Positions 11,556 through 62,030 are shown, counted from the stretch's first letter. The stretch is 64,000 nt of DNA from Candidatus Poribacteria bacterium (GCA_963663765.2 CAXXUA010000003.1:46042-110041), one strand, 5' to 3'. Numbers and translations: made by a program. The notes: generated from the letters alone by a model not told the origin.

Positions 11556-12147
11556 TATAAATTATTCTGTCAGATTCTATCGTCAAATTCGACGCTATGA
11601 TAAATAAAAATACTTCAACGAAAACCTGAAGTTATTTTTATTTATGTAATCCTAACAATATCACAGAGCAATGGTAGATCAACACTATATACTCATTCAA
11701 CTGAAGCACTAAAAAATGGCGAAGGTATTGATCATCTTGTCCATGTTTTTAGTGGTTCTTTCGGCAATTAATTGTTGCATAAAATAAAAGTCCAATGCTG
11801 AAGAACCCCGTAGTCATATGTTTAAGTAGTAGATCGTCAATGGAAACATATCAGGACTTATACACCCAACGGTAGGCATGCTTTGTAAGCGCGCCGGAAA
11901 CCTAAAAAATGCTGAAAATTACATCGTTTTCGTCTTAATTCTTGATTGGATCATGAAAACTGCGTAAGTCCTACATAGAATAAATACTTAGCAAGAAAAT
12001 CATTTAGTGGTTTACTCGGCAATTAATATTGGTATTTTAGACACCCTAAATTCACCCACATTTATCCCCCTGCAAGCGAGGGGAAGGGACATTTTGGTTG
12101 TTTCTGTCCGTTCTATATATAATAAATGTTTAGCGAGTAAACCATTT

Positions 12148-12360
12148 AGTTCCGTAGGAACGATATGTTTATAGAAAATGTTTTCTACCCCAATTGAGTT
12201 CCGTAGGAACGATATGTTTATAGAAAATGTTTTCTACCCCAATTGAGTTCCGTAGGAACGATATGTTTATAGAAAATGTTTTCTACCCCAATTGAGTTCC
12301 GTAGGAACGATATGTTTATAGAAAATGTTTTCTACCCCAATTGAGTTCCGTAGGAACGAC
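12148..12360. repeat. 49/50-bp tandem array, ~4.3 copies (gttccgtaggaacgatatgtttatagaaaatgttttctaccccaattga)
   Basis: Unit starts at 12148, 12198, 12247, 12296 and 12345. The units are identical, so there are no unique spacers. Confidence 0.9.
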
Positions 12361-12590
12361 ATAGAAGAATACACATATCGTCCCTACCAAATCAACGCCA
12401 AATGCGTCAAATCAAGAAATCAACGGTATGAATGCCATTAAGGCATTCCCCGTATGGCATTTGTCGGGACTAAAAAGCGATGTTCATGTTTCAATAATCT
12501 AAAATTGATGTATAAAGTTCGGTTAGGAAACCGAACCTTGTATTAACTTTCAGTAAATCTCAATAACAGAAAATTCTTAAAACTGAATAA

Positions 12591-12860
12591 CACTATTGCT
12601 TAGTCACGTGTTTATTGATGGGTCTAAAAAGTAGTCGGGAATCGGAGTTCCCTCCTACAATACACACAAGACTTCTGTAGGAGCGATCTCCGAATCTCGA
12701 CCTACAATAATAGTATGTTGACTCAACACTATTGCTTAGTCACGTGTTTATTGATGGGTCTAAAAAGTAGTCGGGAATCGGAGTTCCCTCCTACAATACA
12801 CAAGACTTCTGTAAGAGCGATCTCCGAATCTCGACCTACAATAGTATGTTGACTCAACAC
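12591..12860. repeat. 136-bp tandem duplication carrying a GTAGG-headed hairpin pair
   Basis: cactattgcttagtcacgtg... starts at 12591 and again at 12727. Each unit contains gtcgggaatcggagttccctcctaca ... tgtaggagcgatctccgaatctcgac. Confidence 0.85.
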
Positions 12861-16728: not shown

Positions 16729-16832
16729 ATTGTAATTGATAAGTCTGTTTTGTGCAAGGAATATAGGTGTGTAAAGTTTTTATCATGTTTCTGAATCTCG
16801 GATTTCGCGGATAAGATACCAGCATCAGATAG

Positions 16833-17142
16833 CAGGGTTATTTAGTTTTCAATATTTTTGATATTATTTTACTATGTCGTTAATTTTATGGGATACCATC
16901 TTGTCCAGTTCTTTAGTCCCGTAGGGACGATATGTTTATAGAAAACGAATACCCTCCACAGCTCTTTAGTCCCGTAGGGACGATATGTTTATTCTTCTAT
17001 GTCGTTCCTACGGAACTAAAGAGCGATGTTCATTTTTCAATAATTTAAAACCGATGCAGAAAGTTCGGTTAGGAAACCGAACTTGGGTATTAACTTTCAG
17101 TAAATCTCAATAACATAAAACTCTTAAAACTAAATTACCTTG
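16833..17142. mobile_element. MITE family B (TIR cagggttattYagtttt), copy with one internal 53-bp unit
   Basis: Left TIR cagggttatttagtttt and degenerate right TIR aaaactaaattaccttg. Flanking 9-mers atcagatag / atcaggtcg match at 7 of 9. The element is inserted inside an aatccgcg-type inverted repeat. Confidence 0.7.
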
Positions 17143-17366
17143 ATCAGGTCGGATTACATAGGACAAGCGTTATCTATGAAATAAGGTTAATTGTTGAGAT
17201 CTTATCCGTGTAATCCGCGATTTAGAACACAATGAAATTGTGTTTCAAATTATAATAAAATATGGTACAATTCACTAAAAAGGGATAAGGAGAAAATCAA
17301 GACTATTAACAGTGTTATTTATTGTGACATTTCAAACATCTTGTAGACATTGCAAAGGAAAAAATA

Positions 17367-22961: not shown

Positions 22962-23150
22962 CAGGGTTATTCAGTTTTCAATATTTTTGATAATATTTTG
23001 CTATGTCGTTAATTTTGTGTGATACCATCTTGTCCATGTCTTTAGTCCCATAGGGACGATATGTTTATAGAAAATGTTTTCTACCCCAATAAAGTTCCAT
23101 AGGAACGACATAGAAGAATAAACATATCGTCTCTACGGCACTAAAGATGA
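22962..23150. mobile_element. MITE family B, truncated copy (left TIR only)
   Basis: It begins with cagggttattcagttttcaatatttttg and carries the gtagggacgatatg modules. The right part is replaced by a caggacttacgca... element (23155-23360). Confidence 0.5.
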
Positions 23151-25496: not shown

Positions 25497-25732
25497 CCGT
25501 GGCAGGCTTCGTTATAATACTTATTGTCTCATCCTTTTCTCAGGCTTATTTAGTTTTCAATATTTTTGATATTATTTTGCTATGTTACGACTTGTGCCAG
25601 TTAACCAAATGTTTTTATAGTTATCACATATATTAGGTTTATAATGCACACATATCGTCCCTAATGAAGATTAATTTATTAATCGGGTTATATAGTAAAA
25701 CTCGTAATTATTAGCACATGCTGCACGGAACG

Positions 25733-35750: not shown

Positions 35751-36127
35751 GTATGCGTGCTTTGTAAGCGCGCCCCCCTACTGCCCCCCACGCAGGCGTG
35801 CTTTGTAAGCGCGCCGATTTTTTGGCAAGCGTTCTCCCAAACTGTAGGCGTGCTTTGTAAGCGTGCTCCGTTCTCCCAAAAACTGTAGGCGTGCTTTGTA
35901 AGCGCGCCGATTTTTTGGCAGGCGTGCTTTGCGAGCGTGCTCCCAAACTGCAGGCGTGCTTTGTAAGCGCGCTCCGTCTCCCAAAAACTGCAGGCGTGCT
36001 TTGTAAGCGTGCTCCGTTCTCCCAAACTGTAGGCGTGCTTTGTAAGCGTGCTCCGTTCTCCCAAAAACTGCAGGCGTGCTTGTAAGCGCGCCGATTTTTT
36101 TTTTGGCAAGCGTTCTCCCAAACTGCA
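35751..36127. repeat. array of 9 copies of the 21-bp hairpin core ggcgtgctttgtaagcgcgcc (variable 33-48-bp spacing)
   Basis: Cores near 35755, 35794, 35838, 35886, 35920, 35951, 35993, 36038 and 36071. The array is interrupted at 36127/36128 by a MITE. Confidence 0.9.
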
Positions 36128-36555
36128 CAGGGTTATTCAGTTTTCAATATTTTTGATAATATTTTACTATGTCGTTGATTTTATGTGTTGCCATCTTGTC
36201 CATGTCTTTAGTCCCGTAGGGACGATATGTTTATAGAAACATGTTATCTATCCCTCTTGAGTTCCGTAGGAACGACATAGAAGAATAAACATATCGTCCC
36301 TACCAAATCAACGCCAAATGCGCGTGTGGCATTTGGCGGGACTAAAGAGCTGGGGCGTGTATTCGTTTTCTATAAACATATCGTCCCTACCAAATCAACG
36401 CCAAATGCGCGTGTGGCATTTGGCGGGACTAAAGACCGATGTTCAGGTTTCAATAATCTAAAATTGATGTATAAGGTGCAGTTAGGAAACTGCATTTGGG
36501 TATTAACTTTCAGTAAATCAAAATAACAGAAAACTTTTAAAACTGAATAACCCTG
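36128..36555. mobile_element. MITE family B, complete copy with perfect 9-bp target-site duplication
   Basis: TIRs cagggttattcagtttt / aaaactgaataaccctg. The 9-mer caaactgca is present at 36119-36127 and again at 36556-36564. The flanks join to restore the host array unit. Confidence 0.85.
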
Positions 36556-37360
36556 CAAACTGCAGGCGTGCTTTGTAAGCGCGCCGATTTTTTTGCAAGC
36601 GTTCTCCCAAACTGTAGGCGTGCTTTGTAAGCGCGCCGATTTTATGGTAGGCGTTCTCCCAAACTGTAGGCGTGCTTTGTAAGCGCGCCGATTTTATGGT
36701 AGGCGTTCTCCCAAACTGTAGGCGTGCTTTGTAAGCGCGCCGATTTTATGGTAGGCGCGCTTACAAAGCACGCCTGCAGGGGAATGGGGGGATGGCGCGC
36801 TTACAAAGCACGCCTGCAGGGGAATGGGGGGATGGCGCGCTTACAAAGCATGCCTGCAGGGGAGGGCGGGGATGGCGCGCTTACAAAGCACGCCTGCAGG
36901 GGAGGGCGGGGATGGCGCGCTTACAAAGCACGCCTGCAGGGGAGGGCGGGGATGGCGCGCTTACAAAGCACGCCTGCAGGGGAGGGCGGGGATGGCGCGC
37001 TTACAAAGCACGCCTGCAGGGGAGGGCGGGGATGGCGCGCTTACAAAGCACGCCTGCAAAAGGGATAAGAGGGGCGCGCTTGAAAAGCACGCCTGCAGTT
37101 ATAGGGGCAGTTGAGGGGCGCGCTTGAAAAGCACGCCTGCAGTTATAGGGGCAGTTGGGGGGCGCGCTTACAAAGCACGCCTGCAGTTATAGGGGGCAGT
37201 TGGGGGGCGCGCGGACAAAGCACGCCTGCAGTGGGGGGCGGGGATGGCGCGCTTACAAAGCACGCCTGCAGTTGGGGGTGCAGGTGGGGGGCGCGCTTAC
37301 AAAGCACGCCTGCAGGGGAGGGCAGGTGGGGGGCGCGCGGACAAAGCACGCATACCAGGG
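36556..37360. repeat. continuation of the core array (4 copies), then orientation flip at ~36752 into ~15 inverted-orientation copies (8 at an exact 40-bp period)
   Basis: ggcgcgcttacaaagcacgcctgcagg occurs at 36755, 36795, ... 37035 (40-bp period). Further copies at 38-46-bp spacing run to ~37355. The spacers are G-rich. Confidence 0.9.
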
Positions 37361-61114: not shown

Positions 61115-61274
61115 CTTGTAGAAGTTGATTATTCAACAGAACGTCTATTTTTCTACGTGTTTCGTATATTTGTGAAACTGGAGAAAATGATGTGCTCCAG
61201 CGGAGTGCTATGTTGGCTGACAATGTGACTATAAACATATTGCTCCGCTGCAGCAAAGAAAGTTCCGTTTTGGT

Positions 61275-61916
61275 CAGGGTTATTCAGTTTTAAAAGCTTT
61301 CTGTTATTTCGATTTACTGAAAGTTAATACCCAAATGCAGTTTCCTAACTGCACCTTATACATCAATTTTAGATTATTGAAACCTGAACATCGCTCTTTA
61401 GTCCCGACAAATGCCATACGGGGAATGCCTTAATGGCATTCATACCGTTGATTTGGCCCATTTGGCGTTGATTTGGTAGGGACGATATGTTTATAGAAAA
61501 AGAGTGACCTTCCCAGCTCTTTAGTCCCGTAGGGACGATATGTTTATAGAAAACGAGTGACCTTCCCAGCTCTTTAGTCTCGTAGGGACGATATGTTTAT
61601 AGAAAACGAGTGACCTTCCCAGCTCTTTAGTCCCGTAGGGACGATATGTTTATAGAAAACGAGTGACCTTCCCAGCTCTTTAGTCCCGTAGGGACGATAT
61701 GTTTATAGAAAACGAGTGACCTTCCCATGTCTTTAGTCCCGTAGGGACGATATGTTTATTCTTATATGCCGTTCCTACGGAACTCAAGAGGAGTAGATAA
61801 CATTTATCTATAAACATATCGTCCCTACGGGACTAAAGACATGGACAAGATGGCAACACATAAAATTAACGTTATAGCAAATAATCATCAAAAAAACCTA
61901 AAACTAAATAACCCTG
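61275..61916. mobile_element. MITE family B, long copy with an internal 53-bp x5 tandem array (61478-61760)
   Basis: TIRs cagggttattcagtttt (61275) and aaaactaaataaccctg (ending at 61916). Flanking 9-mers cgttttggt / agttttggt match at 8 of 9. Internal unit starts at 61519, 61572, 61625, 61678 and 61731. Confidence 0.85.
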
Positions 61917-62030
61917 AGTTTTGGTCATTATGTCTTGATTTGGTAACATAAGCGGTGCACCAATTTCTTATCAAAACATGTTGGAAAAAAATTGTCCAAC
62001 TATAGTCTTCCTTTAGAGTGGAGGAGTATT

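Follow-up and report, generated by a model that had tools for sequence, protein, structure and literature searches.

The window analysed here is a stretch of 64,000 nucleotides (C3:46042-110041) from Candidatus Poribacteria genome G000, which comprises 6.35 Mb in 15 contigs; coordinates given without a contig name are those of the window. Two convergent genes of the window enclose a 1.6-kb head-to-head array of the 21-bp hairpin GGCGTGCTTTGTAAGCGCGCC (35751-37360). The array has periods of 40-52 bp according to TRF, and the motif caaactg(c/t)a recurs in every unit. It is interrupted by a non-coding element of 428 bp (36128-36555), referred to below as the focal MITE. The element and its immediate flanks are organised as follows.

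36119-36127, no strand: left copy of the target-site duplication CAAACTGCA, directly outside the left TIR
36128-36144, plus strand: left TIR CAGGGTTATTCAGTTTT, located by a scan for the 17-mer
36128-36205: left module of 78 bp, present in ~130 near-full-length genomic copies
36206-36437: variable middle made of GTAGG-headed hairpin units, including an 87-bp tandem duplication (36285-36348 = 36372-36435)
36438-36555: right module, 118 bp, with ~118 copies in the genome
36539-36555, minus strand: right TIR, the exact reverse complement of the left one, located by the same scan
36556-36564, no strand: right copy of the target-site duplication CAAACTGCA, directly outside the right TIR

The TIRs match at 17 of 17 positions, and at 88% when extended to 26 nt. 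Removal of the element together with one 9-mer in silico yields ...gcgttctcccaaactgcaggcgtgctttgtaagcg. The restored host unit, gcgttctcc-caaactgca-ggcgtgctttgtaagcgcgcc, is also found elsewhere in the array and agrees with the neighbouring units, e.g., at 35940-35970 and 36600-36640, so that the other units of the array represent paralogous empty sites for this insertion. The longest ORF of the element codes for 66 aa without similarity to transposases, and nothing in the element or its vicinity scores above the threshold of an Rfam family. Among its full-length paralogues, the best share 92-93% identity. In the two closest species (G036 and G016) the orthologous spacers are 331 and 136 bp long, against 1.8 kb here; both lack the whole hairpin array and therefore contain no empty allele of the focal site. 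The absence of the array from both species indicates that the array, and then the insertion, are lineage-specific.

Scanning of the window for the TIR with up to three mismatches returned ten matches, while 0.28 were expected and none of 100 shuffled sequences reached ten. Apart from the focal MITE, the following copies were located.

12145-12595: 5'-truncated copy with four 49-bp units, the right module and the right TIR at 12579-12595 (2 mismatches)
16833-17142: complete copy of 310 bp, TIRs with 1 and 3 mismatches
22962-23147: 3'-truncated copy comprising the left module with its perfect TIR and some of the middle
25541-25585: solo left end of 45 bp, 91% identity
39498-39554: solo left end of ~57 bp, 82% identity
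61275-61916: complete copy of 642 bp, inverted relative to the focal one, with five 53-bp internal units and TIRs with 0 and 1 mismatches

The flanks of the 61275 copy are cgttttggt and agttttggt (61266-61274 and 61917-61925), which agree at 8 of 9 positions, and those of the 16833 copy are atcagatag and atcaggtcg (16824-16832 and 17143-17151), agreeing at 7 of 9. An earlier note on this DNA, made from the window alone, had described the focal element as a MITE with 17-bp TIRs and 9-bp duplications caught inside a repeat array, listed these two copies with their imperfect flanks and placed truncated left ends at 22962, 25541 and 39498. All of this was borne out: the TIRs and the CAAACTGCA pair of the focal copy are perfect and its removal restores a host unit, both further copies have the TIRs and flanks attributed to them, and the three left ends are real. 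The 12145-12595 copy is additional to those listed there.

Both complete copies are nested in other repeats. The 61275 copy lies inside a dispersed repeat (61200-61274 and 61917-62000), and an insertion of the same type, flanked by CGTTTTGGT, recurs in several copies of this larger host repeat. It is therefore not clearly an independent event; either spread together with its host or insertion at a hot spot may account for it. The 16833 copy sits in a small element (16768-16832 and 17143-17228) which starts with aGGTGTGTAAAGTTTTT, an ISKra4-type end, and has the inverted arms cgcggataagat and atcttatccg..ccgcga. In the orthologous intergenic region of G016, 40 unrelated bases replace the whole 461-bp block. 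We considered this region as a clean empty site for the 16833 copy and rejected it, since G016 lacks not only the MITE but also the small element which hosts it.

The earlier note had proposed cataloguing all copies of the family with their duplications, searching the genome for longer elements with the same ends and a transposase gene, and looking for empty sites in related strains. For the catalogue, the whole genome was scanned for the end sequence, allowing up to three mismatches, and inward-facing ends less than 5 kb apart were taken as pairs. The scan found 698 matches (553 of the genome's matches have at most one mismatch), which form 264 end pairs. Perfect 9-bp duplications flank 84 of the 264 pairs, and a further 33 and 22 pairs have flanks agreeing at 8 and 7 of 9 positions; perfect duplications of 10 bp were registered in 17 pairs and of 8 bp in three. 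When left and right flanks were paired at random, all nine positions matched in just 0.17% of cases. The 84 perfect duplications represent 74 distinct 9-mers, hence they mostly stem from independent events. The duplicated 9-mers show no strong consensus and have a G+C content of 38% (41% in the genome). Altogether the paired copies cover ~90 kb, or 1.4% of the genome. The family combines the traits by which prokaryotic MITEs are recognised, being short, non-coding and multi-copy, with TIRs, duplications of fixed length, termini matching those of an IS, and empty sites.

Recurrent insertions such as that of the 61275 type are seen in three dispersed repeats, in each of which a MITE of this family occupies a constant internal position and has a constant duplication (CGTTTTGGT, TTATCATAG and GCCAATAATA). 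Some copies have left and right flanks from different sets, as if MITEs had recombined.

Longer elements with MITE ends and a transposase gene do exist in the genome. The partner is a 1315-bp IS of the ISAs1 family with the same ends and the same 9-bp duplications as the MITEs. Eleven end pairs are 1314-1315 bp long, and all 11 are flanked by perfect 9-bp duplications. The reference copy, C3:447030-448344, has the ends CAGGGTTATTTAGTTTT, which differ from the focal MITE end CAGGGTTATTCAGTTTT by a single base, a duplication GGACTTACG and one ORF of 387 aa. The ORF product matches Pfam DDE_Tnp_1_assoc and DDE_Tnp_1 and scores 234.3 bits with the NCBIfam model transpos_ISAs1 (NF033564, cut-off 70). 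The IS4 family, whose IS10/IS50-like members also produce 9-bp duplications, was considered for the same protein and rejected, as NF033592 gave only 28 bits with a cut-off of 115. The 11 full copies are 98.6-100% identical, and the 387-aa ORF is intact in 10 of them; further copies include one at a contig end, two interrupted ones and an old one. No other intact ISAs1 lineage was found in the genome. All 11 full copies lie outside the window, and inside it no transposase-sized element is bounded by MITE ends, in agreement with the suggestion of the earlier note that the autonomous partner is elsewhere or lost, neither transposase of the window having matching ends. The nearest remnant of the IS is a decayed copy ~14 kb upstream of the window (C3:30814-31819). 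One IS copy itself carries a 331-bp MITE (C3:31028-31358, duplication GGAAAACGA).

The sequence shared by the MITEs and the IS is confined to the terminal ~17-35 bp. An origin of the MITEs as deletion derivatives of the IS was rejected on this ground; with only the termini in common, they are end-sharing MITEs and not simple deletion derivatives.

We consider it very probable that the focal element is a non-autonomous MITE moved in trans by the transposase of the 1315-bp ISAs1-family IS encoded in the same genome. Judging from the sequences involved, the 387-aa transposase would recognise the shared ~17-bp termini CAGGGTTATT(C/T)AGTTTT and bind the MITE ends in trans. The termini would then be linked to a target whose strands are cut 9 bp apart (in some cases 8 or 10), and repair of the stagger would produce the flanking direct repeat. 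The focal copy would have landed in this way in the species-specific tandem hairpin array between the convergent genes. Both the role of the ISAs1 transposase as the actual mobiliser and the chemistry of transposition are predictions from such comparisons. The earlier note had taken a 9-bp duplication as indicating cut-and-paste DDE transposition. Such a duplication does show staggered joining by a DDE-type transposase; the cut-and-paste part does not follow, as the duplication is compatible with a replicative mode as well. As the MITEs far outnumber the IS copies, some process leading to a net gain of copies is required.

Another transposase acting on the MITEs is the best of the alternatives, although we regard it as highly improbable. 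The genome harbours a second family, represented by a 1462-bp ISKra4-type IS with the end GGGTGTGTAAAGTTTTTG and 9-bp duplications, which codes for a 438-aa transposase (NCBIfam NF033572, 236 bits). One such IS, C5:1771410-1772871, is located inside an ISAs1 copy and flanked by the duplication TCGTTTTCC. The ISKra4-type family is abundant (441 end matches, 43 perfect 9-bp duplications), is physically associated with the CAGGG family, as we call the elements with the MITE ends, and its terminus shares with the MITE end a common GGG...AGTTTT pattern. However, the ISKra4 end GGGTGTGTAAAGTTTTT agrees with the MITE end at only ~10 of 16 positions, whereas the ends of the ISAs1-family IS do so at 16-17 of 17, and the duplication lengths of the latter and of the MITEs are the same, 8-10 bp. 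The ISKra4-type family also has MITEs of its own, in size classes of ~180, 340, 480 and 510 bp.

The copies found in the window belong to the long subfamily, built from the left module, the variable middle and the right module, the inner end of which resembles a degenerate TIR (ttcaggtttcaataat). The size classes, between 306 and ~650 bp, reflect the variable number of hairpin units in the middle. The units differ in length between copies: they are 49 bp long at 12145-12340 and 53 bp at 61478-61760, while the focal copy has the 87-bp duplication. The second subfamily, of ~120 bp, has about 70 copies, and its core consists of a single GTAGGAGCGACC...GGTCGC hairpin. The hairpin unit GTAGGGACGATATGTTTAT has 812 matches in the genome, only 279 of which are inside paired MITEs, the rest being dispersed alone. 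The genome also encodes Y1 transposases (six Y1_Tnp hits), which are candidates for mobilising the GTAG-headed hairpins. Since the hairpin units are also dispersed on their own and the genome has Y1 transposases, the MITE body is probably a mosaic which has captured REP-like units or was invaded by them. An IS200-like Y1 transposase gene (C5:353059-353373) is truncated by an ISAs1 copy (C5:353372-354686).

These observations could also be read to mean that a REP-associated tyrosine (Y1) transposase has spread the whole repeat, which would then be a mosaic of the REP/BIME type with incidental inverted ends. The interior made of GTAGG-headed hairpins that also occur alone and the presence of Y1 transposases would agree with this, yet REP/RAYT systems have neither target duplications nor 17-bp TIRs. 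Here the GTAGG hairpins are internal to a unit bounded by TIRs and 9-bp duplications, both matching those of a DDE-type IS. We therefore find the explanation very hard to sustain and retain mobilisation by the ISAs1-family transposase.

Mobility of the family is evident from empty sites. Empty forms (170 bp, the 9-mer and 170 bp) were rebuilt for 14 MITEs with perfect duplications and unique flanks and searched against 40 genomes of the genus. At seven orthologous sites the alignment crosses the junction with a single copy of the 9-mer.

C2:291302: empty in G036, AATATTAAA
C3:550843: empty in G036
C4:909222: empty in G016 and G036
C8:10677 and C5:1593686: empty in G016
C5:24791: empty in G045
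C7:35119: empty in G040

At the G036 site orthologous to C5:121944 there is a 378-bp member of the family with its own 9-bp duplication, TCTTTTTAC. In addition to the sites in related species, empty sites exist as paralogues of the 61275 copy: at least 20 copies of its host repeat are uninterrupted in the same genome, and one of them, C6:299184-299290, matches the reconstructed empty site at 97% identity, with CGTTTTGGT present once. As the focal element lies in an array where this motif is repeated, the 9-mers beside it might instead stem from the periodicity of the array or from recombination between units. This notion can hardly be entertained: the 9-mers coincide exactly with the boundaries of the element, the array repeats every 40-52 bp, the unit is complete only after removal of one 9-mer, with both of its halves complete on either side of the insert, 73 more distinct perfect 9-bp duplications occur at unrelated sites, and empty sites contain a single copy of the 9-mer.

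Members of the CAGGG family are often found next to the ends of other transposons. Within the family, 29 junctions have a spacer of 6-10 bp (9 bp in 11 and 10 bp in 12 of them). Some of these junctions belong to homogeneous head-to-tail arrays of 2-6 near-identical MITEs separated by exactly one 9- or 10-bp duplication, with a period of ~130 bp for the short subfamily. The following arrays lie outside the window.

C3:179060-179570: four 121-bp copies
C15:117984-118623: MITE array
C5:701395-701776: MITE array
C5:1385763-1387722: MITE array
C8:55813-56065: MITE array

Such homogeneous arrays could result either from repeated insertion into the same target or from unequal recombination or tandem duplication. 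Other junctions involve different elements with one duplication present three times, for example a 121-bp MITE and an IS at C5:1770170/1770300, with CAAGAATAT, and a pair of 122 and 307 bp at C5:580695. To produce these, the same 9 bp must have served as target twice.

CAGGG ends are also located ~8-9 bp from ISKra4-type ends, at a frequency far above that expected by chance, e.g., at C6:74982-77762, C2:240235-241075 and C6:374483-375042. The distances from ISKra4-type ends to the CAGGG ends facing them form a sharp peak, with 57 cases at 3-23 bp and only three at 41-120 bp; in the control orientation of the two ends none was found within 30 bp. No two spacers are alike, so each case is an event of its own. 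Of 40 genomes of the genus, 18 show this arrangement, and the reversed-pattern control gave no case. For three clean chains, a model with the CAGGG element inserting second gives perfect duplications for both elements, while the opposite order leaves a mismatch. This suggests a register in which the ISAs1-type element inserts second and its target consists of the terminal base of the neighbour and eight flanking bases. About 17% of the well-preserved independent insertions adjoin a transposon end.

On these statistical grounds, we see roughly even chances that the ISAs1 transposase picks targets at the termini of resident transposons, both its own and ISKra4-type ones, either in a fixed register or by re-using the duplication of the neighbour. 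Several IS elements are known to target repeats: IS231A inserts into Tn4430 ends, IS30 into its own ends, and IS1397 and ISKpn1 into REP/BIME sequences. The poribacterial CAGGG elements resemble them in being placed at a fixed register beside resident transposon termini. They differ in that the register equals one duplication length and overlaps the terminal base of the neighbour, the evidence in their case being statistical. To our knowledge, end-adjacent targeting has not been described for elements of the ISAs1 family. If the pattern reflects real targeting, it adds a new trait to the behaviour of this family. End-directed insertion, if it takes place, would build head-to-tail chains of transposons and may seed tandem arrays of a MITE plus its duplication, i.e., a bacterial route from a MITE to a satellite-like array. 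The focal target was also considered as a mimic of an ISKra4-type end (GGCGTG against GGTGTG past the duplication); being the sole such case among 698 ends, this speculation was set aside.

Members of the ISAs1 family are 1.2-1.5 kb long according to ISfinder, code for one DDE transposase, have ends starting with CAGGG and generate duplications of 8-10 bp; they include ISAs1 of Aeromonas salmonicida, the H-repeat elements of E. coli and IS1358 of Vibrio cholerae. The partner IS conforms to this description with its 1315 bp, a single 387-aa ORF, CAGGG ends and duplications of 9 (8 or 10) bp. Unlike the known ISAs1 systems, it resides in a Candidatus Poribacteria host and is accompanied by an unusually large population of MITEs. 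The pair is an ordinary MITE/IS system of a well-understood kind, found here in an understudied phylum. It provides a fully resolved combination of a MITE and its autonomous IS for the ISAs1 family, the transposition of which is little studied.

Two bacterial MITEs are comparable. BrickBuilt of Porphyromonas gingivalis is a non-coding, TIR-bounded MITE whose leader and tail modules enclose a minisatellite that varies in copy number; the TIRs correspond to those of a resident IS, and the interior retains no trace of a transposase (PMC4596501). The poribacterial MITE likewise has modules around a variable internal repeat, TIRs matching a resident IS and no transposase remnant. However, the ends of BrickBuilt are of the IS5 family, its repeat units measure 23 nt, and its 19 copies show inconsistent duplications (PMC4596501), in contrast to the ISAs1-type ends, hairpin units of 49-87 nt, hundreds of copies and clean 9-bp duplications found here. 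The cyanobacterial MITE Nezha, described by Zhou et al. (2008) and summarised in PMC3184786, has its TIR and type of duplication in common with an IS and was recognised as mobile by filled and empty orthologous sites. Compared by description only, the poribacterial element is similar in its small size, in the TIR and duplication type shared with an IS and in having filled and empty sites, and differs in the phylum of its host. Among the papers searched, none mentions both Poribacteria and MITEs.

Candidatus Poribacteria are uncultivated symbionts, and the genome studied here is sponge-associated. Within the genus the family is ubiquitous: each of the 28 same-genus genomes searched contains the end sequence, between 7 and 553 times, with the maximum in G000. 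Beyond the genus it is nearly absent: 18 genomes from other genera of the order have 0-6 matches each. As a genus-wide family with an ~80-fold range of end copy number between species, it can be used as a marker of genome dynamics and is likely to give rise to rearrangements and to breaks in assemblies.

All relatives found for the transposase, at 45-83% aa identity, come from MAGs labelled Candidatus Poribacteria. A Nostocales cyanobacterium, which the style of the repeats had suggested as host, was rejected for this reason. The related IS copies with 76-83% aa identity in other MAGs of this group are 1305-1318 bp long and keep the same ends, and several of them (L021, L030 and L031) have perfect 9-bp duplications. 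In L023-L027 there are pairs of IS copies with swapped flanking 9-mers, e.g., TGGAGTGGG/ATAGACATA in one copy and ATAGACATA/TGGAGTGGG in the other. Such reciprocal flank exchanges are typical of IS-mediated inversions and indicate recombination between IS copies.
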